Shown piece after piece: positions 34,238 through 62,469 of a DNA stretch of 64,000 bases; position 1 is the first letter of the stretch; each line of letters starts with the position of its first letter. The stretch spans positions 170-64,169 of the forward strand of contig JABJCN010000157.1 in the NCBI GenBank assembly GCA_018668635.1. Direction: 5' to 3'. The translations under genes and the position numbers were made by a program. The notes under the pieces are model-generated. The model did not search any database, was not told where the DNA came from, and saw nothing but the letters and a program-made list of their open reading frames with translations. The DNA is from Opitutia bacterium. Lineage in GTDB: Bacteria; Verrucomicrobiota; Verrucomicrobiia; Opitutales; JABJCN01.

Positions 34238-35584
34238 ATGAAACGACTGAAATCACTAGTTCTAATTCTGCATATTGCCTGCTTCATCAACGCCGCTCCA
34301 TTGCCCGGGAAAAAGATTGATGCAGGTCGGACGGTCGATAAAGACCAGAATAAAGCCACCCTGACCAAGGCTACCTTCTTGGGTAAACATTGGCCATCCT
34401 GGCGAGGAGCAGGGAATTCCGGCAGCACCGGGAAGGGGGATTCGAACTTTTTTAAATACCCAACAAAATTCAGCCACAAGGATAATGTCCTCTGGAAAGC
34501 TGAACTCCCCGGCAAGGGTTGCTCCACTCCAATTGTATTGGGTGAGAAGATCGTCCTGACCTCTTCTGCGCAAGGTTCAGATGCCATAATTGCGTTTGAC
34601 TGGGCAGGCAAAAAACTCTGGCAAACAAAAGTGGGGGAGGAGCGAAAGGGAAAGCACCGCAATGGTTCAGGCAGTAACCCGTCAGTCACCACGGACGGGG
34701 AGGGTCTGTTCGCCCTCTTTAAGAGTGGAAACTTTGTCGGCCTCGACCTCGACGGAGGGATAAAATGGAAGGCCAACCTCGCAGATTTTGGAAAGGATAG
34801 TCTTTTCTGGGATTTTGGCACATCGCCCGTTAAAACAAGGAAGAATGTAATCGTCGCCCTCATGCGAAATAATAATTCATGGCTTATCGCCTTCAACAAG
34901 GAGACAGGAAAGATCGATTGGCAGGTTGAGCGAAACTATGATACCCCCAACGAGGGCGACCATAGTTATGCAACCCCTATCGTACGCATGGAAAACGGTC
35001 GCGAGACCATTCTTGTCTGGGGTGCTGAAAGACTTACATCCCATTCATCCACAGATGGTTCCATTCTCTGGAGCTGTGCGGGATTCAATCCCAACGCCAA
35101 GAAAAACTGGGTTGTGGTTGGTTCCCATATTGTCGCGGGTGAGATGGCGATTGTTCCATATGGACGGGGTACTCATCTTGCCGGAATCAAGCTTGGGGGG
35201 GCGGGGGACGTCACAAAAACACATAGGGTGTGGACTCGATCGGACAGCGGTTCATTTGTCCCAACTCCGGCTCTTTCAGATGGAAAAGTATACATTCTTC
35301 GTGACCGTGGAGAAGTTCATTGCATCAATCCACTTAATGGGAAGAGTCACTGGGAGGACAAGTTTCCTCGCGCAAGCTCAAGCTATTACTCTTCCCCTGT
35401 AATTGCGGGGAATCATCTCTACGCCACTCGTGAAGACGGAAAAATCCTGACAGCTAAAATTGATGGCGCCTTTCAATTCCTCCATGAAAATGACATGGGG
35501 GAACGTTTGATTGCCTCACTGGTTCCTGTTGCCGGCAAACTTCTTGTTCGCGGAGAAAAGAATCTTTTTTGTATCGGAAAGTAG
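34238..35584 (+). CDS. Secreted PQQ-like (BamB-like) beta-propeller repeat protein
   Basis: Signal peptide; WPSWRGAGNSG entry motif; repeated ...LW(Q/S)... blades; GEVHCINPLNGKSHWE. Confidence 0.7.
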   Translation: MKRLKSLVLILHIACFINAAPLPGKKIDAGRTVDKDQNKATLTKATFLGKHWPSWRGAGNSGSTGKGDSNFFKYPTKFSHKDNVLWKAELPGKGCSTPIVLGEKIVLTSSAQGSDAIIAFDWAGKKLWQTKVGEERKGKHRNGSGSNPSVTTDGEGLFALFKSGNFVGLDLDGGIKWKANLADFGKDSLFWDFGTSPVKTRKNVIVALMRNNNSWLIAFNKETGKIDWQVERNYDTPNEGDHSYATPIVRMENGRETILVWGAERLTSHSSTDGSILWSCAGFNPNAKKNWVVVGSHIVAGEMAIVPYGRGTHLAGIKLGGAGDVTKTHRVWTRSDSGSFVPTPALSDGKVYILRDRGEVHCINPLNGKSHWEDKFPRASSSYYSSPVIAGNHLYATREDGKILTAKIDGAFQFLHENDMGERLIASLVPVAGKLLVRGEKNLFCIGK

Positions 35585-36617: not shown

Positions 36618-37223
36618 GTGGCAAAGTCCCAAAAGAACACAAAACAATCCTCCAAGCGAAAAAATGCCAAGCCGGTGATTCACCCTCAGCACGGCGTCAT
36701 TCCTCCGGAACGCAACAAGGAACTTGTAGGGTTATTGATGAAGCATCAGCGACGAATTTTCTCATATATATATACTATGGTTCCCAATCGCGAGGACTCA
36801 GAGGATTTGCTTCAGGAAACTTGCCTAACAATTTGTGAGAAATTTACTGACTTTGTTGAAGGTACCAACTTCCTTGCATGGGCATGCCAAATCGCATTCT
36901 GGAAGGTTCGTGCAGCGCGCAAGAAATTTGCCACAGCCAAGGTTGTTTTCAATCAAGAGCTTATGGATACGGTCTCAGACACCATGTTCGAGATGGCAAA
37001 GGAACTCGATGTGCGGCACGAGTCCCTCAATGCCTGCCTACAAAAGCTTAATGAGCGGGATAGAACCATGATCATGACCCGATATGAACCTGGATGTAAT
37101 GCACAAACTGCATCTGATGTCTGTGGTCGTTCTATACAAGCAACATACAAGGCCTTGTCCAGGATTAGGAAATTGCTCTTCGACTGCGTTACATTTGAGC
37201 AGGCCGTTCGTGACAACATATGA
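36618..37223 (+). CDS. ECF-type RNA polymerase sigma-70 factor (Rhodopirellula/Verrucomicrobium family-like)
   Basis: Region 2: IFSYIYTMVPNREDSEDLLQETCLTICEKF...FLAWACQIAFWKV. Region 4: ERDRTMIMTRY...TASDVCGRSIQATYKALSRIRKLL. GTG start at 36618. Confidence 0.85.
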   Translation: MAKSQKNTKQSSKRKNAKPVIHPQHGVIPPERNKELVGLLMKHQRRIFSYIYTMVPNREDSEDLLQETCLTICEKFTDFVEGTNFLAWACQIAFWKVRAARKKFATAKVVFNQELMDTVSDTMFEMAKELDVRHESLNACLQKLNERDRTMIMTRYEPGCNAQTASDVCGRSIQATYKALSRIRKLLFDCVTFEQAVRDNI

Positions 37224-38956
37224 AACTTTCAGATAATGAAATCCTTGAGTTTGATGAATTGCTGAATTCAGTCTCAGAGGAAAGTGTAACCGAAGCTGAC
37301 AAGAAACGGCTTCAGGAATGGCTCCAGAACAGTAAGTCTGCCCGGCGGCGCTACATAAAGTTCATGGACATGAATGCCAGCCTGCATCATTATGCAGCGG
37401 AATTTCAGGGAGCCATACCCGAAGATGACCCTGAAGGATTTCGTTCCCCGACGCAAAGTGGCTCCAATATTCCTGATCACTTCCTCAAGACGGCACTCGC
37501 CGTAGCAGCAGCAATAGTCCTTGGCTTTGTCGCGCTAAACTTCCTGCCAAAAAAAGCGTCTCCTATTGATGATGAACAGGTAAACGCCGACAATCAACCT
37601 TTCGAGGGCAGCAAACCCGAAGCTTTTGCGCCCGTTGCAAACAGTGTTGCAGTGCTGACCCAGGCATGGGGTCTTGAATGGGACAACCCGGATGCCACCG
37701 TCAAAGTAGGGGATGAACTCTCTGTCAGCTCTCTGGAGTTCTCAGCAGGTCTGGCACAACTGGAATTCAAGGATGGGGCTATCGTTATTGTTGAAGGGCC
37801 TGCCAAGTTGCAACTGAAGGGGGCCAATGAAGTTTTCTGTTACTTCGGTAAAATCCGGGCCATGGTTCCGGAGCAGGCTTCCGGATTTCAGGTCGGTACA
37901 CCCAGTCTGGATGTTGTGGATCTGGGCACTGAGTTTGGCATGAGCGTTGGCGAGAACGGCGAAATTGAAGTTGTCGTTTATGAGGGGAAGGTCGAATTGC
38001 ATATTGATGAGGCCATGCCTGGCGCTGAGCCTGAAATTGAGGTTTCAGAGCTCAATGCGGGGGAAAGTGTTTTTCTGGACCCCAAGGGGTTGCTCAAGAA
38101 GATGGATATGCCCAAGAGTCAGTTCATCGGAACTGCAGGACTCGCGGAACGCTCCATCGAGGAACTTCAGGCCCGCTACTCACGATGGGTCGAGGCCAGT
38201 CAGGAATTGAGGGAGGATGAGCGTTTGTTGCTTTATTACACATTTGACAACGAGCAGGCATGGTCCCGTACCGTTACCGATCAGGCGCTCAACAAATCCC
38301 GCAGCTCCAATGGGGCACTCATCGGATGCATGTGGGTGCAGGGACGCTGGCCCGGGAAGGGCGCCCTGCAGTTCAAACGCAGTAGTGACCGTGTGAGGAT
38401 TGATATTCCGGGGGAACAGGACTCAATTACTTTTACCGCCTGGGTCCGACTCGACCGCCTGAATACGACCACCTCATCCCTGTTTCTTTGCAGTAATGAA
38501 AACCCCGGGAGTCCCCATTGGCAGATTGACAACGAAGGTCGACTCATGCTTGCAGTAAGGAAGCCTGCACGCCGCAAACCAATCAACCCCCGCACCAGGA
38601 TAACCAAGACAGAACCCTGGGTTTATCAAACCGACAAGGTACTCAATAACCGACTGGGAGAATGGGCGCATCTTGTTACCGTATATGATCGCCAGAAGGG
38701 GAGTGTAAGCCACTACATTGATGGGCGAAAGGTTGCTGACCAAAAGATTCAGAATCGGGACCGCTTGAGCATTGAAAAGGCTGAGCTTGGCAACTGGCCC
38801 CGCCCGGACAAGGGTCATCCCGCAACTAATTTCAGGGGAAGCATGGATGAACTGGCCATTTTTAAGTCAGCTCTCTCCAAGGACGAAATCCTAGGCCTTT
38901 ACGAGGTTGGTCGCCCCAATGCTCTCCACGGCTGGGCCTCCCTTCGCAAGGACTAG
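37220..38956 (+). CDS. Anti-sigma factor: N-terminal anti-sigma domain, TM helix, FecR domain, C-terminal LamG (Laminin_G_3) domain
   Basis: The ATG overlaps the sigma gene stop (ATGA). TM helix: ALAVAAAIVLGFVALNFL. FecR-like region: LEFKDGAIVIVEGPAKLQL...DLGTEFGM...VVVYEGKVEL. LamG tail: WAHLVTVYD...GSMDELAIFKSALSKDEILGLYEVG. Confidence 0.75.
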   Translation: MKLSDNEILEFDELLNSVSEESVTEADKKRLQEWLQNSKSARRRYIKFMDMNASLHHYAAEFQGAIPEDDPEGFRSPTQSGSNIPDHFLKTALAVAAAIVLGFVALNFLPKKASPIDDEQVNADNQPFEGSKPEAFAPVANSVAVLTQAWGLEWDNPDATVKVGDELSVSSLEFSAGLAQLEFKDGAIVIVEGPAKLQLKGANEVFCYFGKIRAMVPEQASGFQVGTPSLDVVDLGTEFGMSVGENGEIEVVVYEGKVELHIDEAMPGAEPEIEVSELNAGESVFLDPKGLLKKMDMPKSQFIGTAGLAERSIEELQARYSRWVEASQELREDERLLLYYTFDNEQAWSRTVTDQALNKSRSSNGALIGCMWVQGRWPGKGALQFKRSSDRVRIDIPGEQDSITFTAWVRLDRLNTTTSSLFLCSNENPGSPHWQIDNEGRLMLAVRKPARRKPINPRTRITKTEPWVYQTDKVLNNRLGEWAHLVTVYDRQKGSVSHYIDGRKVADQKIQNRDRLSIEKAELGNWPRPDKGHPATNFRGSMDELAIFKSALSKDEILGLYEVGRPNALHGWASLRKD

Positions 38957-39162: not shown

Positions 39163-42100
39163 TTGGACGCGTTCTCTGGGTCATTCAGCCTTTTTTGCGT
39201 TAAAATGATTGAAAGCAGATGGCTCAACGTCTTGAATTACCGACATCATCTTTTGAGCATTCTCGCAATGCCTGCCTTTAAAAACAAAATCACAACTTCT
39301 TTCCAAAAGTTGTTGCCAATTGCATTGGCTATGATGCTAGGCACTACGCCTGCTTATTCGGATCTGACTGCTTACTACCAATTAGTCCTTGAGGAAGTAT
39401 CCTGGGCCGATGCGGTTGAAACCTCTCAGGAACGCGGAGGCAACCTTGCCACTGTTACAAGTCAGGCTGAATGGGATCAAATCAATGAGCAATTGGGAAC
39501 TAGCATCGATGGCCTAGACCTCTGGCTTGGTGGAAGAGCAGATCCTGAAGATACTGAGCAGGACCCCGGTAAGCGCAGGTGGATCTGGGTCACGGGTGAA
39601 GAATGGGATTATTCACGCTGGCGGAGACTGGAACCGGATGGCAACTTCGGTGTTCAGGACCGTCTTTTCATTAACGGTAGTCACCCAAGTGAAGGTGCTG
39701 ACCACAAGTGGAACGATCACCCAAACAAAGCGGTCGACCTGGCTTTTTCAAAATATGAGATCAAGGGCTACATCATAGAATTAGGTTGGGCATCCATTGA
39801 TGGCAATCTCAGATATGTGGGCTCCAAGTCCGGAAACTTATACATTTCAGTTACCGGTGGTCCTGCTGATCACCCTGGTGGCAGTCGCATGATGCGTCAA
39901 CCCGGGGACTTCAGTTTTACAAACCTGGTGAAGGGGTTCGAGTATACAATCATTGCCTACCTCGACACAAATTCGAATCAAAACCAGGACGAAGGTGAAC
40001 CCGAGGGACGATACGTTTACACACCGCACCTGCTAACCGAAGACCTAAAGGACATCACAGTCACGGTATATGACGAGAACAGTCCGCCCAATCCGTTGGT
40101 GCTCAATGGTCAGTCCATTCACGACAATGACGAGGTCGGCAAGGAAATCGGCATAGTCATTCCATCAGATCCCGACGAGGGACAGGAATTGATGGTATAT
40201 GTTATTGATCCCACCCACAAGTTTCGTGTCGACGGCAACAAGCTACTTATCACGACAACCTTCAATTCAGAAGAAATCCAATCACAACCGCTTGTCCTTC
40301 GCACCGTGGACGACGGTGGACTCTTTACCGACACACAATTTAACCTTTCCGTCCTTCCTCCCAACCGAAGCCCGACGATCAACACCCGTGAATCTGTCAC
40401 TATAGATGAGGACTCCTTCTTCCGCATGGCAACATCCGGAGAGAACATCCTCCAATTTGATGATGATGCGACAGGGAATGAGCAGGTGGAAGTTACATTC
40501 ACGGTTACAGAGGGAGGCATCTATTTCTTCAAAAACAACAATATCACCTTTACGGATGGCGAACCAGGCACTGGATACGTGAAATTCAGAGGCACTCTGG
40601 ATAATGTGAATGCCAGGATGGATCGTCTCACATACAACCCTCCTGAAGACTTCAACGGTCAGGTTACATGGACCATCGAAATCAGTGATCTCGGCAACCA
40701 CGAGGGAAGTGTTCCACTTACTGCGTCACACACAATCGATATCACCATTAATGCCGTCAATGACGCCCCGGAAGTCACCGTCCCCGAGGCCATTCAGAAC
40801 CTGCTGGAGGACAGCACCCTCACGTTTAATATAATCAAAGGGAACCCCATTACGGTCAACGACGACCCGGAGAATGACCAACCCATCACCTTTGAGATGA
40901 GTGTGGATCATGGCACCCTGACCCTTGGCAAGATCCGCAACCTTACATTCCTCACAGGGGCTGACGAATCTTCTCATATGGAGATAAGTGCCACCACCAC
41001 CGCGCTCAACTCCGCGCTGAACGGCCTGACCTACACCGCCCCCAGGGATTTCGACGGCACTGCCACCATTTCATTCCTCACCGCTGATAACGGCAATATT
41101 GGAAAGGGCGGGCCCAAGACTGCACAAAACTCTCTCGATGTCTCAATCCTGGCAGTCAATGATGCTCCCATCATCACCGGTCCCTCGCTGGTTACACCCG
41201 TTGAGGATATTCCTTTCAGCTTTGACGGTGAGGCAGATGCCCTGATCACGATCATCGACGACGCTGCCAACGAGGGTGACGACAACCAGGTTGGCAACGT
41301 CACCACCCAGCTCACCATCAATGTCGACCACGGCACTGTCCGCATGGGGCGTCTCAACGGCCTTACATTTCTTGAGGGCGACTCTGCAGGGGATAGCAAA
41401 CTGGTCATGACCGGCCCCTACAATCTCATGGTTCTGTCCCTTGATGGCATGACCTATACATCGGACAAGGATTACAATGGTGGTGATAGCCTCAAGGTCG
41501 AGTTCAACGACTTGGGGCACTTTGGCGAAGGGGGTGCCAAGACTGCCGCACATACTGTCCTCTTGGTCGTTGGACCCGCCAACGACCCGCCGACCGATGT
41601 CCTTATCGACTCCTCCTCTGTCGCGGAAAACAAGAAGGCCGGTACCTCTGTTGGCAAACTCAGCGCCGTGGACCCCGATGCAAATGACACACATACTTTC
41701 AAACTGGTGGTGCCTGCAGACGCCGGAGCACCACCATTCACCATCTCCGGCAACACCCTCAAGACCACCCGCGAACTGGATGCCGAGGATGAACCCCTCA
41801 TCTTGGTCCACATCGCCGCCACCGACAAGGCCGGTGCCACCTTTACCAAGACCCTCTGGATTCACGTCACAAATCTCAACGATGCACCCACCGGCATCAA
41901 TATCGACAACTCCGTCATCCCTGAGGAGGAACCCGCCGGCACGTTTGTCGGGACCCTTACCACTATTGACTCCGACGGCACCCTCGGTCGGGGACTCATC
42001 GGCTACTGGCCCTTTGATGACGGGCAAGGCATCTCCGTAGCGGACTACTCGGGGAACGGCAACGGTGGCACCATCAACAACGAGACACCCACCATGTGGA

Positions 42101-45100
42101 AACCCGGTAAAATCGGTACCGCCCTGGAACTCAATGGTTCCACCCGTCTTGTCGAGATCCCCCACATCCACAAGTATCTCATTGATTCCGGCACATTTTC
42201 CATCTGGTACAAGCACACCAATGACCAGGGGGCTCTTTTCTCCAAGGATTCATCCGGCTTCGATAACGGCGGGCATTTCTACCTGACCATGAATGCAAAG
42301 AAGCTCGCCGTTCGACTGCAGGGTATCAATACCCACAACAATCTCTCCATGAATGCCGCCTCATCGGTCCTGAACACCCGTAGCCAGTGGCACCACGCAG
42401 CATTCACCTTTGGCACATCCGGAATGACCCTTTATCTCGACGGTGAGATCATGTCCACCAATACCCATTACACCGGCGGCCTCGGTCAGTCCTCCGGCGG
42501 CAGCGGCAACGCTGAACCCATCGCAATCGGTGCCAATACTCTACAGAGCGGGGACAACACCCTCTTCCCGGCAAAGGAATACTTCAAGGGCAGTGTTGAT
42601 GAGTTCCGCATCTACGACCGCGCACTCAGCGACATCGAGGTCCTCGAGCTCATGGAGACCACCACCACCACCAATGACTTCCATGTCTACACGCTCGTTC
42701 CCGGGGTGGGGGCCGGGGACAACTCCTCATTCTCAATCGATGACAACCAACTTTTTACCAAGGTTCCACTCGACCATGAGGGTCGCGATGGTTACCACAT
42801 TCGCATTCGCACACAGGATTCCGCCGGTGAAACCTTTGAGCAATCCCTTCACATCACCACCACCAATGTCAACGACCCGCCGTCTGACATCATACTGACC
42901 CCCGATGCCTTTACCGAGAACCAGGTTGTCGGGGCCACGGTTGGACTTCTGAGTGCAATGGATGATGGCGGGATCGAGGAAGGCGTCGGTTCCTACCAGA
43001 TCGTAAACACAGCCATGGATTGGGAACAGGCAAACGCCAACGCGGAAGCCTTGGGCGGTCACCTTGCCATCATCACCAGTGAAGCGGAATGGCAAAAGGT
43101 TATGGAACTCCCCGGTCTAAAGCAGGGCCTATTTATTGGTGCCACCGATGAGGAGGAGGAGGGGACCTGGAGATGGGTCAACGGACAACCACTCGCCGGC
43201 GAGAACCGCCAACCCGATACATTTCATGCCTGGCTTGGCAGCGAACCCAATAACACTGGCGATGCCGAGCACTATGCCGTTATTTGGGAATGGGATCAGG
43301 CTTATGCCTGGAATGACACCGGCAATTCTTCAACCGGGCACATAGTCGAGTTCCCCGGCATCAGCTATCAACTGGTTGAGGGTGAGGGCGATACCGACAA
43401 CTCCCTCTTCACCATTGAGGGCAACGAGCTCAAGGCGGCCTCCGGGTTTAATTTCGAGACCAGGTCCGCACACAGCATCCGGGTCAAGGCCACGGATTCC
43501 GGGGGGCTCTCCCTCGAGAAAGCCATTTCAGTAACCATCACCGATGCCAACGATACACCGGTTGGCATCACCATTGACAACAACACCATCGATGAAGGGC
43601 TGGCCAAGGGGGCAACAGTCGGCAACCTCTCCGCCATCGACGAGGATGCCGGGGATACCCACACCTTCAGCCTGGTGGTGCCTGCAGATGGCGGAGCTCC
43701 ACCTTTCACCATTTCCGGCAAAACGCTCAAGACCACTGCCGTCCTCGATTTCGAGAGCCAGCCCACGCACGAGCTCATGGTCATGGTGACCGATGAGGCC
43801 CAGGCTTCGTTTTCCCAGGTCATCACCATCAATGTCAATGACACCAATGATCCGCCCACCGGAATCACCCTCGCACCGGCGGAGGTCGCCGAGGGGTTGC
43901 CAAGGGACACTGTTATCGGTACATTGACCGCAATCGACACCGATCCCGGGGACACCCACACCTTCCGCATCACCGGTGGCGCCGACAAGTCCCTCTTCAA
44001 CATCTCCGGCAACCAGCTTTTCACAAGGGAGGTGCTCGATTACGAGACCAAGGCCCAGCTCGAGGTCACCATCGAGGCCAGGGATGAAAGCAACCTCACC
44101 TTCGAGCAGACCCTGACCGTCAATGTGATCAACGCAAATGACCCGCCCACCGATATCACCCTGGAACCAACCACCTTTGCTGAGAACCTGGCCATCGGGA
44201 CCGATGTAAGCAAGTTGGCGCTGGTGGATCCGGATGGAAATGACGCGGGTAATGAGAATCCCACGACTTCTGCAAAATACGTCTTGGTCAATAAAACACT
44301 GACATGGAAAGAGGCCAAGGCTGAGGCCGAGAGCATGGGCGGTCATCTTGCCACTTTCAACTCCGAGCAGGAATGGGATGCCATGGTTGCAGAAGTTGGT
44401 CTCACGAACATTTCCAATGACAACATTTGGCTTGGTGCCACCGACGAGGTGGAGGAGGGCGTATGGAAATGGGTGACAGGGGAACCTGTTACCTACAATC
44501 GGTGGGACGAGGGCCAACCGGACGGGAAAACCAACCAGCACTATATGTTGATCTGGGCAGCTACGGGTGCCAGGTGGGATGATATGGAGTTGAATGGCTA
44601 TGGTAATGTGGCCCTCAGATACTTTCTTTTGGAACTGCCATCGACACCATCTTTCACCCTCACCTCCGGTTCCGGCGACACCGACAACTCCCTCTTCACC
44701 ATAGAAGGGGACCAGCTCAAGACGGCGGCGGACTTCAATTACGAGGCCCGGGACGAATACACCATCCGGGTCAAGGGCACCGATTCCGGTGGCCTGAGCA
44801 TTGAGAAAACCTTCACCCTCGACCTCACCAATGCCCCGGATGCGCCCACGGACATCCTGCTCAGCGAAAGTACCGTCGACGAGAACCTCAAGAAGGGGAC
44901 CCTGGTCGGGAACCTGGTCGCCACCGATGAGGATGCCGGCGAGAAGCACACCTTCAAGATGTTCAATGCCACCCTGGTTGCCAACCCGGACAACGCCCTG
45001 TTCACCATCTCCGGCAACCAGCTAAAGACCAACGACATCTTCGACTTCGAGACCAAGTCCAGCTACACCATCAACGTAGAGGTCACCGACGATGATGACC

Positions 45101-48100
45101 TCGTCTTCATGAAGGAGCTGACCATCGGCGTCAACGACATCAACGACGCACCGACCGGACTCACCCTTGCCCCCGCCGAGGTCGCCGAGGACCTACCCCG
45201 GGACACCGTCGTCGGCACACTCACCGCCGATGACCCCGATGCCGAGGCCACCCACACCTTCCGCCTCATCGGCGGTGACGACAAAGCCCTCTTCAACATC
45301 TCCGGCAACCAGTTGACCACCAAGGCCGTCCTCGACTACGAGGCCAAGCCCCGGCTCGAGGTCATCATTGAGGCCAAGGACAACGGAAACCTCACCTTTG
45401 AACAGACCCTGGTCATCAACGTCATCAACGTGAATGACCCGCCCACAGATATCATCCTGGACAATGACACCTTTGCCGAGAACCAGGTTGTCGGGACCAC
45501 GGTTGGACTTCTAAGTGCAATGGATGATGGCGGGATCGAGGAAGGCGTCGGTTCCTACCAGATCGTAAATACACCCATGAATTGGGAACAGGCAAACGCC
45601 AACGCGGAAGCCCTGGGCGGTCACCTTGCCATCATCACCAGCGAAGCCGAATGGGAGAAGATCAAGGAACTGCCCGGTCTGAAGCAGGGCCTTTTTATTG
45701 GAGCCACCGATGAGGAGGAGGAGGGGACCTGGAAATGGGTGGATGGACAACCACTCGCCGGCATGAACCGCCAACCCGATACATTTCATGCGTGGCGTAG
45801 CACCGACCCCAATAACTCGGACGATATCGAGCACTATGCTGTTATTTGGTACGATGACAGGGATCAGGTTTATTCCTGGGTCGATTTCCCCAATTCAACC
45901 GGGCACATAGTCGAGTTCCCCGGCATCACTTATCAACTGGTTGCCGGCAACGGCGACACCGACAACGCCCTTTTTATAATACAAGGGGACCAGCTCAACA
46001 CGGCCGCGGCCTTCAACTACGAGGCCCGGGATGAATACACCATCCGGGTCAAGGGCACGGATTCCGGTGGCCTGAGTATCGAGAAGGTATTCACGCTCGA
46101 CCTCACCGATGCACCGGATGTTCCCACGGAGATCCTGCTCAGCAACAACACCGTTGACGAGAACGAGAAGAAGGGGGCCATCGTGGGCAACCTCGGCGCC
46201 ACCGATGAGGATGCGGACGAGAAACACACCTTCAGGTTGCTGGACATCCCGGTTGATCCCGATCCCAACCAACCCGCCCCGGCACCGTCCGACAATTCAT
46301 TCTTTGCCATTTCCGGTACCACGTTGAAGACCAATGCCGTCCTCGATTTTGAGGCCAAGTCCGCCTACACCATCACCATCGAGGTCACAGACAAGGACAA
46401 GAGAACCTACCAGCAGGAGATCGTGGTGGGCGTCAACGACGCCAATGATGCCCCGACCGGGTTGACCATCGACCGGGACGCGGTCGCCGAGGGCCTGCCA
46501 AAGGGGACCGAGGTGGGCACCCTTCTGGCACAGGATCCTGATGCCGGGGACTCCCACACCTTCCGCATCACCGGGGGCAAGGACTACAAGCTCTTTTCCA
46601 TTGTCGACAACAAGCTCCTCACCAAGGAGGTGTTCGACCGGGAGGTGAAGGCTGCCTTCGAAGTAGAGGTCACTGCGACCGACAGCGGCAGGCTGATTGC
46701 CGAGACCCTGTTCAACATCACCGTGATCGACGTCAACGACGCCCCGACCGATGTCACCCTCGACAACGACACCATCGCCGAGAACCAGCCCGCCGACTCC
46801 ATCGTCGGCAACTTCACCCTCGTTGACCAGGACGGCGGTGGCGATCCCACCACCGGCGGATTGAGTGAAACGGGTGGCGTCAACCCCGGTACCGGTGGCA
46901 GTACATCCTTCACCCTTGCCGAGGGAGCAGGGGACACCGACAACGCCTCCTTCACCATCGACGGGGAGCGGTTGAAGATTGTTGCGCCATTGAATTTTGA
47001 GGCCAAGCCCCAGCACACCATACGCGTTAAGGCAACGGATGCCGGCGGGCTCAGCGTGGAGCGCAATTTCCTGGTCAAGGTCACCAACGTGCCGGAGGCC
47101 CCGGTTGCCATTGCCATCAGCAATGACAGCATCGCCGAGAACCTCAAGAAGGGGGCCACCATCGGCAAGCTGAGTGCCACCGATGAGGATGCCGGCGAGA
47201 AGCACACCTTCAAGTTGATCGATTCACCCGCCGGGGTGGGCAACGACAACGCCCTCTTCTCCATCTCCGGGTACAACCTGCGAACCAACGCGGTGCTGGA
47301 CTTCGATGCCACCCCGCAGCTTTCCGTCCTTGTCGAGGTCACCGACCGGGCCAAACTGACCTACACACAGGTGCTGACCATCAACGTCACGGACGCCAAC
47401 GACGCACCGACCGGGCTCACCATCGACCCAGTCACCATCGCCGAGAACCAGGCCAAGGGAACGGAGATCGGCACCCTGACCGCCATCGACCCTGACACGG
47501 GGGACACCCACACCTACTCCGTGGTCGGTGGCAAGGACAAGAAACTCTTTGCCGTCAACGGCGACAAGCTTATCACCAACGCCATCCTCGACTACGAGCT
47601 TAAGTCGGAACTGGACCTCGTCATCCGCGTGACCGACTCCGGCAAGGCCTCGGTTGACATCCCGCTTCCCATCACCGTCACCGACGTCAATGATGGCCCC
47701 ACCGACATCACCCTCGACAACGATACAATCGCGGAGAACCAACCCGCCGACACCGTGGTGGGCAAGCTCGCACTCGAGGACCCGGACGGGGCAGGTGGAG
47801 GTTCCGCCCCCGTCATCATCACCGAGGGGGTGGGGGAGAAGCTATGGGAATTTGAAACAGGGGATTATGTTTACTCCTCGCCCGCGATCGGAATCGATGG
47901 TTTAGTCTACTTCGGATCTTTTGACCGAAAGATCTATGCACTTGTTGGCCAGACAGGTATCAAAAAATGGGAATACGAAACGGGGGGGCAGGTTGAGTCC
48001 TCCATTGCGATCGGCTCGGATGGGACGGTCTATGTCGGGTCTAACGGCGGCTCTGTATATGCTCTAGACGGCCAGACAGGTTCGAAAAAGTGGGAGTTTG

Positions 48101-51100
48101 TAACGGGAGGTCTGGTACGCTCTTCTCCTGCCATTGGGCCTGATGGTACCGTCTACATCGGTTCATTTGACAACAAGGTGTACGCTTTGAACGGTAAAAC
48201 TGGTTCTAAGAAATGGGAGTTTGTCACGGGAGGTTCTGTGAAGTCATCACCTGTGATCGGATCAGATGGGATGGTCTACATCGGGTCTTATGACAAAAGG
48301 ATATATGCTCTGGATGGCGAGACTGGAGAGAAACAATGGGAGTTCATTACGGGAGGGCGGGTGCAGCGGTCGCCGTCCATCGGATCAGATGGAACCGTCT
48401 ACGTAGGTTCATTTGACAACATAATATACGCGCTTAACGGGAAAACCGGTGTCAAGAAGTGGGCTTTTGAGGCTGGGGACATGCTGGAATCCTCTCCCGC
48501 GATCGGCTCGGATGGAATCGTCTATGTAGGGTCTGCTGACAAAAATGTCTATGCTCTGGATGGTCATACTGGGGTTAAGCTATGGGAATTCATGAGCGGA
48601 GGAAAGGTAATCTCCTCTCCCGCGGTCGGCTCGGATGGTACCGTCTATGTCGGGTCTGTTGATAAAAAGGTCTACGCCCTTGATGGCAAGACTGGCGCTA
48701 AACAGTGGGAATTTGTAACTGGAAACAGCATTAAATTGTCTTCCCCCACTATCGGTTCGGATGGCACCGTCTATATCGGGTCGCATGATAATAAGGTCTA
48801 TGCCATCCAAGGATCCTCCGGTCCTGCAAATTCCACCTGGCCAATGTTCGGTCAGAACCCGCAGCATACTAGTCGGATCGACGATAGTAGCTCAGGTTTC
48901 TCCTCCTTCACCCTCACAGCCGGTTCAGGCGACACCGACAATTCCTCATTCACCATCGACGGGGACGACCTGAAGCTGGCCGCACCGCTGAACTACGAGG
49001 CCAAGAGTAAGTACAGCATCCGGGTCAAGGGCACGGACAGCGGGGGACTCTCCATCGAGAAGGAATTCCTGATCGATGCCACCAATGTCCCCGAGGCGCC
49101 AACCGCCGTTGTTCTGGACAACGACACCGTGGAGGAGAACCTCAAGAAGGGGTCCACCGTGGGACGCCTGTCAACCACTGACGAGGACAGCGGCGAGAAG
49201 CACACCTACAAACTGGTCGATGCACCGGAAGGGGAGACCAACCAGAACGCCCGCTTCACCATTTCAGGAACCACACTGCGTACCAACGACGTATTTGACT
49301 TTGATGTCGTGCAGGAGCAGACGGTCCATGTCGAGGTGACCGACCGGGGCAAGCTGACCTTTGTGCAGGCCTTGACCATCCGGATCATCGACGCCAATGA
49401 CCCGCCGACCGGCCTGACCATCGCATCGGACAGCGTGGACGAGAATCAACCCAAGGGCACCGTGATCGGGGCCCTGACCGCGGTGGACCCCGATGCCGTG
49501 GATTCGCACACCTACTCCATTGTCGGTGGCCGGGACAAGAAGCTCTTCGCCGTGGCGGATGGCAACCTGGTATCCACGATGCCCTATGATTTCGAGACCC
49601 AACCCACGCTGGAGGTTGTGGTCCGTGTCTATGACAAGCGGAAGGCCCAGGGGGAATTCCCGCTGAGCATCACGGTGAACGATGTCAATGATGTGCCGAC
49701 CGACATCACCCTCAGCAACGACACCATCGCGGAGAATGAACCCACCGACACCATCATCGGGAAGCTGGTCCTTCTCGATTCAGATGGGGCAGGTGGCCCA
49801 ACGGTCGATCCCGTCAGTGGAAATACCCAGTTTGATTTCACCAACGGCCTCGTGGCCTACTATCCATTCAACGGAGATGCCAAGGATGAAACCGGCAACG
49901 GGCATGATGGCGTCGTCCACGGGGCAAGCCTGGGCCCTGACAGGCAGGGGACAGATACAAGTTCCTATTACTTTGATGGGGTGGATGACTACATCGATGT
50001 TGGGAGCCATCAACTGGACGGTGCTTTTACGATTGCCTCGTGGGTTTATCACGACGGGGTGAACACCCTACCATGGTTTGAGGCTGTTTATGCTACGGCC
50101 AATGTAGATATCGGTCTCTTCGCCCACCTACTTGAAGGGTCCATGTTCTCCAGACTCCATGTGGGAGGCAATAACGATGCCTATATCGACACAGATAAAA
50201 TGACAGTTCCCACCGGCAACTGGTATCACCTTGTTGGTTCATGGGACGGCCAGAACGCCAGTTTATACATCGATGGTACCGCAAAGGCTACGGCATTGAC
50301 CGGGTCAATGAATGCTCCGGTCCCCTCAAATTCATACTTGGGAAAGAATGGTTGGCGGGAAAACGAGGAGGAACTGGGTGAACACCTTAAAGGCCGTCTG
50401 GACGATGTGCGCGTCTACGGCCGTGCACTTTCAGTCGAGGAAGTTACCGCCCTCTACAATCTCGAAAGTGGGACATCTACTGGCACCACCTCCTTCGCCC
50501 TCACTGCCGGCGATGGCGATACCGACAACTCCTTCTTTACCATCGACGGGGACGACCTGAAGCTCGTTCCCTCAGCAGACTTTGAAACCAAAAACGAGTA
50601 CAGTGTGCGGATCAAGGGGACCGACTCTGGCGGTCTCTCCATCGAGAATATCTTCCAGGTCGGCGTGACCGATGTGAACGAGGCCCCCTTCAATGCAACC
50701 CTGGATATCACCCTTGTAGAGGAGAATGCACCGGCCGGGTTCCGCCTTGGCAAACTGGTGGCCCTGGACCCCGACCGCGGGGACAAGGTGGTGGTGACCC
50801 TTGCTGAGGATACCGACGAGATTGACAACGAGCATTTTCAGTTCAAGGGAACAAGCCTGGTTACGAAGACAGCCTTTGACTATGATACACAGCCGACCCG
50901 CACCCTTCGTGTGATTGCGACCGATTCCGGTGGTCTGAACACGGTGACGGACATCCTGATCAACATTGGCAACAAGAGTGAACCACCCACGGGCATTACC
51001 CTGGACGGCACCTCGGGCGAGGTGGTTTCCGTGGAGGAGAATGCCGCTACGGATACATTGGTCGGCAGCTTTACCACGGAAGACCCGGATGGAGCCGAGG

Positions 51101-54100
51101 CCTTTGTCTACAGCCTTGTCAGTGGGGATGGAGATATAGGGAACAAGAACTTCACCATCGATGCGGAGGGCAACATAAAGGTCAAGGCTTCCGCCAACCT
51201 GGACTTTGAAACATCCCCCGCCACTTCTGTACGGGTCCGCACGACGGATACAGGAGGGAACTCCCTGGAGATATCCTTTGCAATTGCCATAACCAATGTA
51301 AATGAACTTCCCCTGGGGGTCACGCTCGACAACGAATCCGTAATGGAGGGCCTGCCGAATGATACACTCGTCGGCACACTATCCGCGACCGACACGGACA
51401 GCGGGGATTCCCACACCTTCACCCTGGTGGACGGGGCTGGAGGCACCCACAATGACCTGTTCAAGATTGTTGGTGATGAGCTCCAGGTTGCACAGTTGAT
51501 TTCCGGCAAGACAACCCCGGTGGCCAGCATACTGGTCCGGGTGACGGATGCCGGTGGCCTTACATTCAATCAGGCATTATCCATAACCATAACCGATGCC
51601 CCGGATGCGCCAACCGGTATCAACCTGGATGGCAACTCAATCAAGAAGTATGAGCGCACCGGTACATTGATCGGCACACTGACCGCTGTCGATGGTGATG
51701 AGGATGACAGCCACACCTTTGCACTGGTCAGTGGTGCAGCCGGGACCAACAACGAGCTTTTCTTTATCGATGGGGATCAACTGGTCTCCAACCACATGTT
51801 CGATGACACTGCTGCAGCCTCCTACAAGATCAATGTGGAGGTGACGGACAGCGCGGACCTCACTTTTGTAAAGACCTTCACCATCACCATCATTAACGCT
51901 GCCAACCCCGGTGGACACCTGGTCGATGTGACCAAGATTCCCGTGGATGGCGGACTGGTGGCCGGTGCCGGGTACTACACCGATGGTGAAGCCGTGAGCC
52001 TTGTCGTGAAAAACAGCCCGGGCTACACCTTCTCCGGTCACAGCGGTGACGTGGCGGGAGGTTTCTCCGCTGAAAACCCGCTGGAGTTTGATGCGGATGG
52101 GAACAAGGACATCATCACCAGCTTCACTCAGGGGTATCACAAGGTTGTGGTTGGCGTGACTCCGGAGCGTCATGGTTATGCCTGGGGCGGAGGCAGTATC
52201 CAGCATGGTACCGAGATCACTGTCCAGGCCAAGGAACTTGACCCGAAATACGGCTGTGTCTTCACCCACTGGAGTATCAACGGGGTTGACCAACCCGTGG
52301 ATGAATCGAGCCCGCTTGTCCTGAAGGTGACCGTGGATCGCACCCTTCGTGTTCTTGCCCACTTTGACTACGGCCTGCCGGATTCCATGAAACTGGTTCC
52401 CTCTGGCAACTTTTCACAGGGCGATGCCCGCTACCATGGGGAGAAACCGGTCATCACCCCGCTGGTCAGTGCATTCTATATGGATGAGCATGAGACCTCC
52501 AAGAAGGATTTCTATGATGTCTTCAACTGGTCAATCCAGCAGGAGACCCCGTACAGCTTCATGTTTGATCCTACCGTTGTCAACGGGCGCAACCGGGCCC
52601 ACATCGATGGTGGATACAAGGATGATTTCCCCATCACGGCCATTACCTGGCTGGATGCCATTGCATTTGCCAATGCCCTTTCTGAAATGGAGGAGTTGAC
52701 CCCCGTATACTACGAGGATGCTGCAAGGACCACGGTCTTCCGTGGCCGCAAGCGTGACAAGAATGCGGATGCCGGGAATGAGGAGAGCCACCTCGGGCAA
52801 AAAATTTATGAATCCAATGTGGACTGGCGGGCCAAGGGGTATCGCCTTCCCACAGAATCGGAATGGGAGAAGGCGGCTCGCGGCGGTGTTGCAGGACTCA
52901 CCTATGCCAACAGCAACACGCTGGACTCCAAGTTTACCCATTATGACCAGGATACCATAATCCGCAGTCTGCGATCGGTGGGCAGCCTGGAACCCAATGG
53001 CTTTGGCCTTTATGACATGAACGGCAATGCATGGGAGATGTGCTGGGACTGGCACTGGAAGAACTGGTATTTTGAAGCGGATGCATCCGCCAAGGACCCC
53101 AAGGGTCCAGATATGTCTGACAAGACCATCTTCGATAAGGTCAATGCGGAAAACTGGCTGGTCCGTACGGTTCGGGGGGGTAGTGGCAATACCGACAAGT
53201 CCCGGATGCGTATTTCCTACCGCAAGGATTTCAACAAGACATGGTACCAATACGCCATAACCGTACGCCCGCTGGTTCCAGCACCAAGTGATCCGCGTGC
53301 CGAGGTGATCGTGGCGCTTGTCCCTGCACACCTTGGGTCTGTGACAGGTGGCGGTGTCTATGAAATTGGGGCGACTGCAACCCTCATTGCCACACCCGCC
53401 TCAGCCAATGCAAATTTCCTTCGGTGGGAGGATGCTGCCGGGAATAACCTGGGTACCGGCACCACACTTTTACTTAGCCTGAATTCAACCGGTGCAGATG
53501 ACGACCTGGACAAGGAGATCACCGCAATCTTTGAGGATACATCCAATCCCGATGACCAGCTCTATAGCCTCGAGGTTGTTGCTGATCCATTTGGCTCAGG
53601 TACAGTCCTTGGTGGAGGTGCCTACAAGCTCGGCGCAGAAGTCACCCTGACCGCCGTCCCTTCCAATGGTAATGATTTCGCCGGATGGTCCGGGGATGCC
53701 TCCGGCACTGAAACGGAGACCAAGATAACGATGGACGGACACAAGAAGGTCCTGGCGTACTTTGGGGATACATCCGAGGATTCCGATGAGGATGGTCTTT
53801 CTGACCTTTATGAAAAGAGCCTGGGTACCAATCCGGAAGACAAGGACACGGATGATGACGGTTTGACCGATGGCGAGGAGATGAACACCCATTCCTCCAA
53901 TCCGCTTCTGGTTGATTCTGATGGGGATGGTCATGATGACAAGACCGAGGCCTTCCATGGCACTACCCTGAATGATTCATCTGACTTTCCATTCCTCGAG
54001 CAGGACAGGATTGGACTCTGGTATGTATTCAAGGGTAAGGCATACGACATGTCTCCAGCCCGTAATCACGGAAAACTCAAGAGCGTCAGTTTTACCAAGG

Positions 54101-61242: not shown

Positions 61243-62469
61243 CTAGGGATTGGCGTCTACGCAAATAAGGTCTCCTCGGGCATTTCTTGCGTAGATAAAT
61301 CCATTTGCAAGAACGGGAACTGTCCAGCACTTCCCACGAAGGGCATGAATCTCAGCGGTTGGCTCGAAGCTTTTCGTAGAAACTGGAGCCTCAACCAGTT
61401 GACCGCGTTCACCAAGGGCCAGTATTTGACCGGACGCAACCATGAGTGACCCACAGCGAAGTTCCGCTCCACCACGCCATTTGCTCTTACCGGTGCTCAA
61501 TTCCAGACATACCAGTTCCTTGGGGCCGGCCATATGTGAGTTTCCATCAAAACCATAGATATGACCATCAAGGATTACGGAATTGTTCATGTGGTTCGAG
61601 AGATTTTTGTTTTCCCAAAGCGTATTCAGTTGATTGCCCTGCAACTCAAAGAGGGCACATCCCCTGTGATATCCTGTGGACACGAATATTTTTCCGTCGG
61701 GTAAGACAATGGGGGAGGTGGAGTTGGTGCGAAATGAGGTTTCCCATTTCCTGAATGCAACAGAGGACCCATCTGTTGCATCAAGAATGACAAGTCCATC
61801 AGTCTTCAAGGTTGCAATCAGCGTTCTGCCATTATGCGTGAAAGTGGCAGGAGTTCCGTATGCATGGCGGTATCTCTTGCTTCGCCAAATATCCTTTCCA
61901 CTCTCTTTATCCAGTGCGAAGGTGTATCCTCCCTCAATCAGGAGCTTGTCTCCAAGGACAACAGGGGAGCCAGCAAAACCCCATTCCGGAGGTTTTTTCA
62001 TGGCAGCAGCTTTCATCATATTACGTTCCCAGAAAACCTTGCCAGTTGCTGCAGCGTAACACTTGAGACGCCCGTCCTTACTGATTGTGTAAACTCGATC
62101 CCCATGTACGGTCGGGGTGGAGCATGGACCTCCTTCATGTAGATAATCAACAAGGACAGCCGGGTAGGTGTCGGCCCAGACCGGTTTGCCGGTCAAGGCA
62201 TCCAGGCAATGGACTGTTTCCATGCCATCTTTTTTTAATCCGTTGTGACCCATTGTATAAATTCTACCCTTGGACACCGAGATGGAGGAGAAGCCAACAC
62301 CAATGCTCTCTTTCCATATAATATTGGCATTTGAAAGACTCCATTGGGATTCACTGGATATACCATTCAGTGCGGGTCCTCGCCAGTTTGGCCAGTCGAC
62401 TGCAACAAGATTAGTGCAGACTAGAATCAAGGTAATTAGAGATGCATTCCTTATGTTCATGGGATGCAA
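61243..62469 (-). CDS. Secreted PQQ-like (BamB-like) beta-propeller repeat protein
   Basis: Signal peptide; DWPNWRGPALNGIS entry motif; repeated blades (GKPVWAD, GKVFWER, GKDIWRS, LNTLWEN, GKSKWRG). Confidence 0.7.
   Translation of the reverse strand: MHPMNIRNASLITLILVCTNLVAVDWPNWRGPALNGISSESQWSLSNANIIWKESIGVGFSSISVSKGRIYTMGHNGLKKDGMETVHCLDALTGKPVWADTYPAVLVDYLHEGGPCSTPTVHGDRVYTISKDGRLKCYAAATGKVFWERNMMKAAAMKKPPEWGFAGSPVVLGDKLLIEGGYTFALDKESGKDIWRSKRYRHAYGTPATFTHNGRTLIATLKTDGLVILDATDGSSVAFRKWETSFRTNSTSPIVLPDGKIFVSTGYHRGCALFELQGNQLNTLWENKNLSNHMNNSVILDGHIYGFDGNSHMAGPKELVCLELSTGKSKWRGGAELRCGSLMVASGQILALGERGQLVEAPVSTKSFEPTAEIHALRGKCWTVPVLANGFIYARNARGDLICVDANP

Follow-up and report, generated by a model that had tools for sequence, protein, structure and literature searches.

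Lectin-like, laminin G-like and propeller domains nested at one loop of cadherin repeats in a giant protein of a marine Opitutae bacterium

Introduction

A 64,000-nucleotide stretch of a metagenome-assembled genome (MAG) from an Opitutia bacterium (contig JABJCN010000157.1 of assembly GCA_018668635.1), here called the window, carries a single open reading frame (ORF) of 5830 codons at 39163-56655. The giant protein that it encodes contains a long stalk of cadherin repeats, in which complete domains of other folds are nested inside individual repeats, in every case at one and the same break point. This nesting is real and robust. Seven repeats are broken at the shared loop; six of them hold a guest, namely two laminin G-like (LamG) domains, three C-type lectin-like domains (CTLDs) and an eight-bladed propeller, and the remaining one holds only a linker of about 20 residues. 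A preliminary description, made from the DNA without database searches, had proposed this arrangement, and its core is borne out by the profile searches and structure predictions reported here. Coordinates are those of the window and lie on its forward (+) strand unless marked (-).

Seven repeats broken at one loop

A hidden Markov model (HMM) of the repeat was built from 11 uninterrupted repeats of the giant protein and then searched against that protein, where it found 31 matches. Six repeats were each matched as two pieces with complementary, non-overlapping HMM coordinates. The pieces upstream of the guests (pre-halves) cover HMM positions 1 to 33 or 35, with independent E-values (i-E) of 2e-6 to 4e-10, apart from those of sites 2 and 4, where the match covers positions 1-45 and the alignment extends a few residues into the guest. 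The downstream pieces (post-halves) begin at positions 21-39 and run to 102, with i-E of 1e-11 to 1e-16. The repeat at site 5 was matched end to end, having at the shared break position only 19-20 residues rich in Gly, Thr and Pro. The Pfam cadherin profile PF00028 gives the same register: its matches to the post-halves begin at profile position 28-41 and continue to about 90, and in the site 5 repeat it covers positions 4-90. Against a cut-off of 28.8 bits, intact repeats score 45.9 and 30.7 bits on this profile, repeat 5 scores 29.0, and the split repeats score 17.6-31.1, mostly through the post-half alone. In a block alignment made with MAFFT and containing one long gap, every one of the 16 intact repeats lines up with residues 1-32 and 400-470 of split repeat 6, so that the neighbours of the split repeats indeed read without interruption across the position at which the guests stand.

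The break falls directly after the DxD(G) of a DxDxGxN-type calcium loop, and it is the same loop in 7/7 repeats. In repeats of the host type this DxDG break point is followed by the motif xFxLxxGxGDTDNxxFTIxG. Split repeat 1 comes immediately after an intact repeat, C0 (41584-41889; HMM 1-102, 127.7 bits). Its pre-half, with strands A, A' and B, occupies 41881-41979 and ends in TTIDSDG (HMM 1-33, i-E 1e-8), and its post-half, with strands C-G, occupies 42670-42882 (HMM 21-102, i-E 1.5e-16; PF00028 in two stretches). Split repeat 2 adjoins it, with a pre-half at 42874-42972 that ends in LSAMDDGG and a post-half at 43351-43560 (HMM 39-102, i-E 4e-16). From site 2 onwards each split repeat is followed by two intact spacer repeats, as the order of the HMM matches makes plain, the first such pair being B2 and C2 (43552-44148; 135 and 133 bits).

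The following modules were delimited with the same HMM. The halves of split repeat 3 lie at 44140-44238, ending in LALVDPDG, and at 44638-44847, with spacers B3 and C3 at 44839-45444; those of split repeat 4 lie at 45436-45534 and 45916-46125, with spacers B4 and C4 at 46117-46746, B4 having an enlarged Pro-rich loop at 46237-46296. Repeat 5 is of the host type and occupies 46738-47103 (HMM 1-102, 64 bits), of which 46738-46836 corresponds to the pre-half, 46837-46893 to the linker and 46894-47103 to the post-half; B5 and C5 follow at 47095-47700. Split repeat 6 is composed of 47692-47790, ending in LALEDPDG, and 48892-49101, and is followed by B6 and C6 at 49093-49698. Split repeat 7 is composed of 49690-49788, ending in LVLLDSDG, and 50479-50688. 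Four more intact repeats (50680-51906; 54-87 bits) carry the stalk beyond the end given to it in the preliminary description.

A module length of about 1.3 kb had also been proposed. This holds for the CTLD modules, which are spaced by 1287 and 1278 nt, and fails for the linker module (978 nt) and the propeller module (1998 nt). These spacings come from a repeat search of the DNA; Tandem Repeats Finder, limited to periods of at most 500 nt, returned only the 123-nt repeat of the propeller blades.

A true cadherin repeat as host

A profile of 16 repeats, searched against the PDB, finds CELSR1 with an E-value of 1e-61 along with 162 other cadherin chains, protocadherins and cadherin-23 coming next, and the cadherins that it finds there are all eukaryotic. 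The inter-repeat calcium motifs AEN, DPD(G), L(D/N)(F/Y)E and (V/A)ND(A/P)P are kept in intact and split repeats alike, and the D-x-D-x-G of the repeat aligns beside the DxDxGxN motif of cadherins. Judged from these sequence relationships, the host of the guests is a true cadherin repeat, and the repeats of the stalk probably bind calcium. Since in the split repeats the chain exits straight after DxDG, the GxN part of the loop would be replaced by a tether. The DxDxGxN loop of cadherins lies at the N-terminal end of the repeat and supplies ligands for calcium sites shared with the preceding repeat, so that guests inserted there would emerge at the junction between repeats.

Predicted structures of split repeats

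Two constructs were modelled with AlphaFold2 (AF2). The first covers residues 1563-1997, that is intact repeat C2, split repeat 3 with its CTLD and intact repeat B3, with an alignment consisting mainly of nested paralogues and fragments. Its mean predicted local distance difference test score (pLDDT) is 89.4, and only the tether falls below 50. The intact repeat is predicted with strands A, A', B, C, D, E, F and G. In the split repeat, strands A, A' and B (residues 102-126 of the model, pLDDT >90) are followed by a disordered tether (132-140), the CTLD (143-263) and strands C-G (268-327), the strands before and after the guest adding up to exactly the set of the intact neighbour. In a Foldseek search of the PDB the best 50 matches to this model are all cadherin ectodomains. 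Three-domain fragments of cadherin-23 (5w4t, 5i8d, 5tfk) match it with target-normalised TM-scores of 0.57-0.60, and cadherin-23 EC1-3, which has 315 residues, was aligned over 459 columns with a target-normalised TM-score of 0.60. Alignments that run about 140 columns beyond the length of the target are as expected if the CTLD forms a gap inside the middle repeat.

The second model consists of split repeat 6 alone, with the block alignment as input, and reaches a pLDDT of 91.7 and a predicted TM-score (pTM) of 0.75. The pre-half is predicted at pLDDT 92-95 and the propeller blades at about 97, with only the two tethers below 50. The input alignment contains intact repeats gapped over the guest and so favours reassembly of the halves. 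For the propeller guest Foldseek returns the designed protein Cake8 (TM-score 0.98, root-mean-square deviation 0.8 Å), YxaL (0.82-0.84) and BamB (about 0.8), its nearest structures thus being the non-enzymatic scaffolds BamB and YxaL and designed propellers. The prediction confirms guest 6, in model, as a closed ring of eight blades. Both split repeats were modelled confidently and the strands of their halves sum to one cadherin set, supporting a predicted seven-strand cadherin sandwich made from the two halves of a split repeat. The halves are therefore complementary parts of one profile and one strand set, and not separate small domains, an outcome that would have told against the preliminary description, as would break points at differing loops, which were likewise not observed.

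Some other constructs were dropped. In a joint construct of 1096 residues with the propeller and the second LamG domain, MAFFT placed LamG-nested homologues on the propeller site; in constructs that included the preceding intact repeat, it split that repeat across the guest, which would have given AF2 a false signal.

The guest domains

The profile searches return what the preliminary description had predicted of them, namely discontinuous cadherin matches flanking Lectin_C, PQQ_2 and Laminin_G_3 domains, and thus one insertion point with three unrelated folds and one site without a guest. Guest positions and identities agree with those first given; the boundaries used here are 15-70 nt wider because they include the flexible tethers.

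Guest 1 (LamG1; 41980-42669, 230 residues with its tethers) and guest 7 (LamG2; 49789-50478) match Laminin_G_3 (PF13385) with E-values of 7e-20 and 7e-24 and scores of 72.1 and 85.2 bits (cut-off 27.6), over positions 1-150 of the 151 in the profile. Guests 2, 3 and 4 match Lectin_C at 37.5, 46.8 and 35.8 bits (cut-off 22.6), and the PDB sequence matches of the CTLDs include Mincle, CLEC4D, DC-SIGN, DEC-205 and the mannose receptor. CTLD2 (42973-43350; 4e-9) has no cysteines and has the canonical sugar-site motifs EPN and WND, which align to those of Mincle and CLEC4D. CTLD3 (44239-44637; 5e-12), whose PDB matches are DEC-205 and the mannose receptor, reads QPD and WDD and has a tether of about 16 residues, disordered in the AF2 model, at its N-terminus. 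CTLD4 (45535-45915; 2e-8) is 81% identical to CTLD2 at the amino acid level. It was at one point thought to share the EPN/WND of CTLD2, which was ruled out, the motifs being DPN and WVD. At site 5 both the repeat HMM and Pfam find no guest, only the 19-residue G/T/P linker (46837-46893). Guest 6 (47791-48891) is an eight-bladed PQQ/BamB-like propeller with a 123-nt blade period, flanked by disordered tethers of 7 and about 20 residues; it matches Beta-prop_ACSF4 and PQQ_2 with E-values of 8e-102 and 1e-46 (341 bits).

Guests of the same kind can be very different in sequence, LamG1 and LamG2 being 25% identical and CTLD3 being 35-36% identical to CTLD2 and CTLD4. The whole of residues 808-4248 (41584-51906; 3441 residues), comprising the cadherin stalk and all guests, contains 0 cysteines, and the full protein has 5. 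Such a cysteine-free stalk may point to export in an unfolded state or to an environment where disulfides do not form.

Different guests at the same sites in orthologues

Two collinear orthologues of the whole gene were available, L007 (ENA ERZ28548087) and L008 (ENA ERZ28548088, a 650-kb contig). The N-terminal CTLD is 84% and the FGE-like domain 80% identical between the window and the orthologues, and the host repeats of both map one-to-one onto those of the window. Identities to the window are 92% for B6, 85% for B7 and 79% for C5 in L007, and 82% for B4, 79% for the site 5 post-half and 80% for C5 in L008; across the orthologues B4 is 76-82% identical to its counterpart in the window.

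The window holds, from site 1 to site 7, LamG, CTLD, CTLD, CTLD, the 19-residue linker, the PQQ propeller and LamG. The corresponding series is LamG, CTLD, CTLD, CTLD, LamG, CTLD and LamG in L007, and LamG, CTLD, CTLD, a Kelch propeller (8e-22), LamG, a domain of about 1.2 kb with a weak FG-GAP-like match (2e-5) and LamG in L008. Guest content hence differs at 3/7 orthologous sites (4, 5 and 6), where the flanking repeats are 70-92% identical. The preliminary description had suggested looking for other guests at the same site in related genomes, and these are present: a CTLD or an FG-GAP-like domain in place of the propeller, a Kelch propeller in place of CTLD4 and LamG at the site that has only a linker in the window.

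Site 5 holds LamG in both orthologues, and the linker of the window, GGDPTTGG..., resembles the N-terminal tether of the orthologues' guest, DDDATTGGG.... For both reasons the simplest reading, with three sequences leaving the direction unrooted, is that a guest was deleted here in the lineage of the window.

The B-type spacer repeat has a second insertion hot spot, at HMM position 45-48. In L007 (6261-7016) and L008 (8078-8809) a thioredoxin-like domain of about 150 residues with a WCPPC motif (Thioredoxin_8, 4e-17) is nested there, and another relative, P0026, has a 110-residue insert (residues 1787-1896) that matches no family. In the window, B3 (44839-45153) has no insert at this position and B4 has only its Pro-rich loop.

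Recombination between modules

The DNA of the modules has a patchwork character. The stretch 45445-45925 takes in the pre-half of split repeat 4, CTLD4 and the very beginning of the post-half. Its identity to the site 2 unit is 85-98%, and the corresponding repeat family (D5, module 4 against the site 2 unit) has a DNA identity of 86%. The flanks of module 4, that is repeat C3 and the sequence from about 45955 on, are instead 75-95% identical to module 3, and within them the post-half of split repeat 4 is 80-95% identical to the site 3 unit from about 45955, the recombination junction. By this pattern of identities supermodule 4 is a recombinant mosaic. Likewise, at site 6 of L007 the pre-half and CTLD resemble site 3 of the window, and the post-half and B6 resemble site 6. 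Hosts that carry different guests are 58-68% identical (68 for sites 3 and 6, 68 for sites 5 and 6, 67 for sites 6 and 7), and are as alike as hosts that carry the same guest.

The mosaics suggest that what moves is a guest and the pre-half before it, and that the junctions lie in the conserved NDxPTD linker and the GxGDTDN region. Conservation of the host halves, and of the linkers between repeats, from one module to the next means that homologous recombination or gene conversion could move a guest with its pre-half from one module to another, and probably has done so. The recombinant supermodule and the orthologous sites with other guests together favour the original suggestion of interchangeable heads on a cadherin stalk.

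Wider relatives and the rarity of nesting

Nesting is also seen in other relatives. P0026, a partial protein from an Opitutae MAG, has modules of one split and two intact repeats with an RCC1-like propeller, LamG, an SBBP-type propeller and a PQQ propeller as guests. PQQ and RCC1 propellers are nested in P0050 and P0120, LamG is nested in P0080, P0090 and P0091, and a CTLD is nested in P0121, which is 51% identical over the whole unit. By their family assignments the guests at the main loop belong to at least seven families: CTLD, LamG, and the PQQ, Kelch, RCC1, SBBP and FG-GAP propellers.

A paralogue-like giant gene, L009 (3781-18605 of the 870-kb contig ENA ERZ28548059), lies in another neighbourhood, with no pair of ECF (extracytoplasmic function) sigma factor and FecR genes upstream. 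Nested in its repeats are an RCC1 propeller, LamG, an SBBP-type propeller, a CTLD and a PQQ-like propeller. It shares with the giant gene the C-terminal arrangement of FGE, Flg_new_2, LamG and I-set domains, and it resembles P0026.

Nesting is otherwise rare. It was found in 12 of 104 cadherin-repeat proteins (1154 full repeats), the 12 being the closest relatives. Of 79 metagenome loci selected by the GxGDTDN repeat type, with 342 full repeats between them, a single one had it, with a PQQ propeller as guest. No nesting was seen in the distant relatives (34-38% identity) that a scan of genome contigs returned from Okeania, a Chloroflexia MAG and a Waddliaceae MAG. A junction query of a pre-half and the start of LamG, run against 1.84 billion representative proteins, brought no new nested cases; its results were swamped by proteins with multiple LamG_3 domains and are uninformative as a census.

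Two further arrangements were noted. In P0032, named serine/threonine kinase in its source, residues 495-1063 comprise a PQQ propeller and then a LamG in series, 60% and 34% identical to the propeller and LamG2 of the window. In P0080, P0090 and P0091 a PQQ propeller (residues about 494-980) stands between two complete cadherin repeats and not inside one. The same modules thus also circulate in non-nested form.

Comparison with known systems

The closest parallel is found in RTX adhesins such as MpIBP of Marinomonas primoryensis, FrhA of Vibrio cholerae and AhLap of Aeromonas hydrophila, in which ligand-binding domains project from ‘split’ Ig-like domains (PMC10865825; PMC12077191; bioRxiv 10.1101/2025.09.30.679566). 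There too a β-sandwich domain of the stalk is broken by a complete ligand-binding domain with side-by-side termini, the guest points away from the fibre axis, and one protein can have several kinds of head. The ligands of domains carried on split domains include fucosylated glycans, peptides and whole cells (PMC10865825, PMC12077191), and AhLap resembles the present protein in having two plain extenders between split domains (PMC12077191). Up to six carbohydrate-binding modules (CBMs) have been reported in Acinetobacter adhesins (RTX adhesin papers PMC10865825; PMC12077191; bioRxiv 10.1101/2025.09.30.679566). The preliminary description knew of no precedent for nesting of this kind; as a principle that was too strong, and the novelty is correspondingly narrower.

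The differences are nevertheless considerable. The RTX hosts are bacterial Ig-like (BIg) extenders, β-rolls or von Willebrand factor A (vWFA) domains and here the host is a cadherin repeat. RTX guests are inserted either behind strand 1, which in FrhA means after 12 residues, or ahead of the last two strands (PMC10865825; bioRxiv 10.1101/2025.09.30.679566); here the chain exits once A, A' and B are complete, after 33 residues, within the DxDxGxN loop. The guests are CTLD, Laminin_G_3 and the PQQ, Kelch, RCC1, SBBP and FG-GAP propellers in place of the CBM/PA14, peptide-binding and vWFA domains of RTX adhesins; the sites form a periodic array of seven along the stalk in place of a C-terminal cluster; and the N-terminus is of the Sec type, in contrast to the type I secretion of RTX adhesins. 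No GGxGxD motif is present anywhere in the giant protein, Pfam and NCBIfam give no match to HemolysinCabind or any other RTX family, and the RTX N-terminal retention-module family gives no match to the N-terminus, which consists of a signal-peptide-like stretch and a CTLD. By these signatures the protein has no RTX β-roll and is not an RTX/type I secretion adhesin. Full-text literature searches returned nothing relevant on split or nested domains in cadherin repeats or on such Verrucomicrobia proteins, a weak negative given incomplete coverage.

Other systems share components of the architecture. Uninterrupted cadherin-repeat proteins of Rhodopirellula, Planctomycetota and Bacteroidota (P0011, P0015, P0096, P0119) have the same repeat of about 100 residues with DxNDxP linkers and often GxGDxDN, and are likewise giant, secreted and from aquatic bacteria, but their repeats are contiguous, and accessory domains, where present, stand in series instead of being nested. 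CELSR/Flamingo and FAT resemble the giant protein in having EC repeats with calcium linkers and LamG in one polypeptide. In CELSR and FAT the LamG and EGF domains follow the EC array in series; no guest is known to be nested in an EC repeat of these proteins, and no CTLD or propeller is known in them. The mannose receptor and DEC-205, the best PDB sequence matches of CTLD3, also carry several CTLDs with different motif states on one extended chain. Their CTLDs, however, are in tandem and disulfide-bonded, and those here are cysteine-free and looped out of cadherin repeats.

Of chief interest are the cadherin calcium-loop ‘socket’, the breadth of guests (CTLD, LamG, five kinds of propeller and, at the second site in orthologues, thioredoxin-like) and the evidence that heads are exchanged between close relatives.

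The giant gene and its neighbourhood

The start codon of the giant ORF (39163-56655) is probably that of M36, at 39268. It is followed by a hydrophobic, signal-peptide-like stretch, MPAFKNK...LPIALAMMLGTTPAYS, ending in AYS, as seen by eye in the translation. The protein then comprises, from N-terminus to C-terminus, a non-nested CTLD (CTLD0, 39340-39807; Lectin_C 5e-4; motifs EPD and WND), a Big_9/Cadherin_4-like region and the cadherin stalk with its nested guests, and after the stalk InlB-B-repeat-like and FGE-sulfatase-like domains, TSP3-like Asp repeats, LamG and six or seven Ig I-set domains. The final segment of about 100 residues (56350-56652), which follows a DADGDG...LLEYALGSDP segment, has no Pfam or NCBIfam family match and could be an undescribed sorting or anchoring domain.

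The FGE-sulfatase-like domain (52387-53247; Pfam 2e-35) is flanked by InlB-B-repeat-like (Flg_new_2) domains at 51880-52390 and about 53580-53770. In NCBIfam it is weakly similar to GldK and GldJ, lipoproteins of gliding/T9SS, and it is kept in L007 and L009. A 775-residue protein encoded at 30041-32368 (-) has, by eye, an N-terminal kinase motif, HRDLKPTNILL, and an FGE-sulfatase-like end, GIYDMQGNVKEWV, which would place this end in the same family as the domain inside the giant protein.

Two genes directly upstream of the giant gene encode, by their Pfam matches, an ECF sigma factor (36618-37223) and a FecR-like anti-sigma protein whose C-terminal domain is Laminin_G_3 (37220-38956). Both orthologous giant genes are likewise preceded by the FecR-like/LamG gene (L007 1-395; L008 1-2166), and in L008 the ECF sigma gene is present as well. 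Such conservation suggests that the pair is probably the regulator of the giant gene, and its LamG, which belongs to the same family as the LamG guests, may be the means by which it detects a ligand outside the cell.

Nearby genes at 34238-35584 and 61243-62469 (-) code for two stand-alone PQQ_2-type propeller proteins (Pfam 2e-24 and 1e-24), which could be the local source or relatives of the nested propeller. Between 40001 and 50000 the giant gene has a G+C content of 0.54-0.60 and an AT skew of up to +0.18, and its flanks have a G+C content of 0.45-0.52. The long antisense ORFs that it contains, such as 43528-44949 (-) and 41143-42216 (-), most likely arise from the bias and repetitiveness of the coding sequence. 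DUF1501 and PSCyt/DUF1549/DUF1553 neighbours, identified with Pfam, fit the Planctomycetes-Verrucomicrobia group, and flanking proteins of the window are equal residue for residue to proteins of several marine Opitutae MAGs, for example MBT6462825.1. An exact search for the giant protein itself, from either candidate start, gave no entry in the protein collection used.

A possible display scaffold

The explanation that we consider probable for these observations as a whole is that of a multivalent display scaffold, a cadherin fibre that a marine Opitutae bacterium exports through Sec and that calcium stiffens. The chain would leave the β-sandwich after strand B, within the DxDxGxN calcium loop that faces the preceding repeat, would then fold as a complete guest with side-by-side termini (CTLD, LamG jelly-roll or closed propeller), and would return via a short flexible tether to complete strands C-G. 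With the guest looped out and the chain returning in this way, the stalk would remain continuous and the guests would project sideways at regular intervals, spaced by two plain repeats. The guests are most likely ligand-binding heads, mainly glycan-binding, and may let the cell attach to, or capture, polymers on algal or particle surfaces with several specificities at once. Members of the Opitutae are known as polysaccharide degraders. The protein would be exposed and anchored at the cell surface and have an adhesive role, and is probably controlled by the upstream ECF sigma/anti-sigma pair.

Recombination between modules could also delete a guest, and the set of heads may thereby come to differ between close relatives. 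We tentatively extend this to a domain-display system that evolves by recombination, in which a ‘socket’ cadherin repeat might take any domain with adjacent termini, its halves acting as homology arms, so that heads are swapped, copied or deleted between modules and genomes, with at least seven head families and a second socket, of the B type, for thioredoxin-like domains. This wider proposal is one that we could see falling either way, and perhaps a little more readily against it.

Several observations weigh against the display scaffold. LamG and the PQQ-like, Kelch, RCC1 and FG-GAP propellers have no predictable ligand. Only one of the four CTLDs, CTLD2, has the fully canonical EPN/WND, CTLD3 being nearly canonical and CTLD4 and CTLD0 degenerate. 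No CTLD contains a cysteine, so the two canonical disulfides of the fold are missing. Scans of the giant protein with Pfam, NCBIfam and motifs gave no T1SS/RTX, T9SS or PEP-CTERM signal for secretion across, or anchoring in, the outer membrane. To these may be added the bias in the input alignment of the second model, the unrooted direction of change at site 5, and the quality of L007 and L008, error-rich assemblies with many frameshifts, as a result of which some guests were identified from fragments only and the FG-GAP assignment is weak.

Whether the nesting could be only apparent has also to be considered. The low PF00028 scores of the split repeats taken alone would suit an ordinary string of beads in which the two halves are separate small domains or linkers, yet the halves cover complementary, non-overlapping parts of the profile in 6/6 cases, their predicted strands sum to exactly one cadherin set, even a pre-half of 33 residues has a pLDDT above 90, the three-repeat model superposes on three-domain cadherin structures, and in repeat 5 and the intact host-type repeats this sequence runs on unbroken. 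That view is accordingly hard to sustain, and we give as little credence to an assembly artefact in which repeats of the MAG were collapsed or chimerically joined. The source is indeed an uncultured MAG, the region highly repetitive and the orthologous contigs error-rich, but the 17.5-kb frame is open through all 14 junctions, none of which departs from one shared codon-level position in the host repeat; independent ENA, JGI, NCBI and Logan assemblies show this architecture too, at 30-60% identity, and the flanking genes are identical on up to 14 contigs.

Two other alternatives accept the nesting and are less remote. The guests might be structural elements, serving lattice or sheath contacts, shielding or fibre spacing, or else decaying passengers, and not heads at all. 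The state of the CTLDs, with a single fully canonical sugar motif among four and none with disulfides, fits such an explanation, as do the resemblance of the propeller to the scaffolding proteins BamB and YxaL and not to lectins, and the site that lost or never had a guest in an otherwise undisturbed gene. We consider it unlikely nonetheless, since the guests are complete and confidently folded in the predictions, their families commonly serve as binding modules, binding to sugars, peptides and cells has been demonstrated for RTX domains on split domains (PMC10865825, PMC12077191), EPN/WND is kept in CTLD2 and QPD in CTLD3, and the replacement of guests from one orthologue to another is easier to reconcile with changing specificity than with a fixed lattice. 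Somewhat more weight, though still clearly the lesser share, goes to the idea that recurrent cassette exchange has played no part, the diversity of guests going back to separate insertions of great age into a structurally permissive loop, after which the genes diverged by vertical descent and now and then lost a guest. The great divergence between guests of the same kind and the rarity of nesting outside the family speak for it, and the comparison of guest sets involves three orthologues only. Against it, the orthologues have different contents at sites 4, 5 and 6, with flanking repeats that are 70-92% identical, site 6 of L007 joins a site 3-like pre-half and CTLD to a site 6-like post-half, and supermodule 4 of the window has two clear breakpoints inside host halves.

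Implications

If guests do serve as heads on a cadherin stalk, the split-domain principle known from RTX/type I proteins of Proteobacteria extends to another host fold, insertion topology, export route and phylum, suggesting convergent solutions to the problem of holding heads off a long rod without breaking it. The arrangement offers a rule for the annotation of giant proteins, in which discontinuous cadherin matches would flag functional heads. The comparison of orthologues provides an unusually clean natural case of domain-level cassette exchange at a fixed site, of interest for protein evolution and engineering, and the display system, if real, would be a ready template for engineered multivalent display on a rigid, calcium-dependent rod. 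For the organisms themselves, the findings point to a multi-lectin surface fibre, probably under ECF sigma control, in uncultured marine Opitutae, which could, were heads exchanged as proposed, quickly retune the binding repertoire of one giant adhesin.

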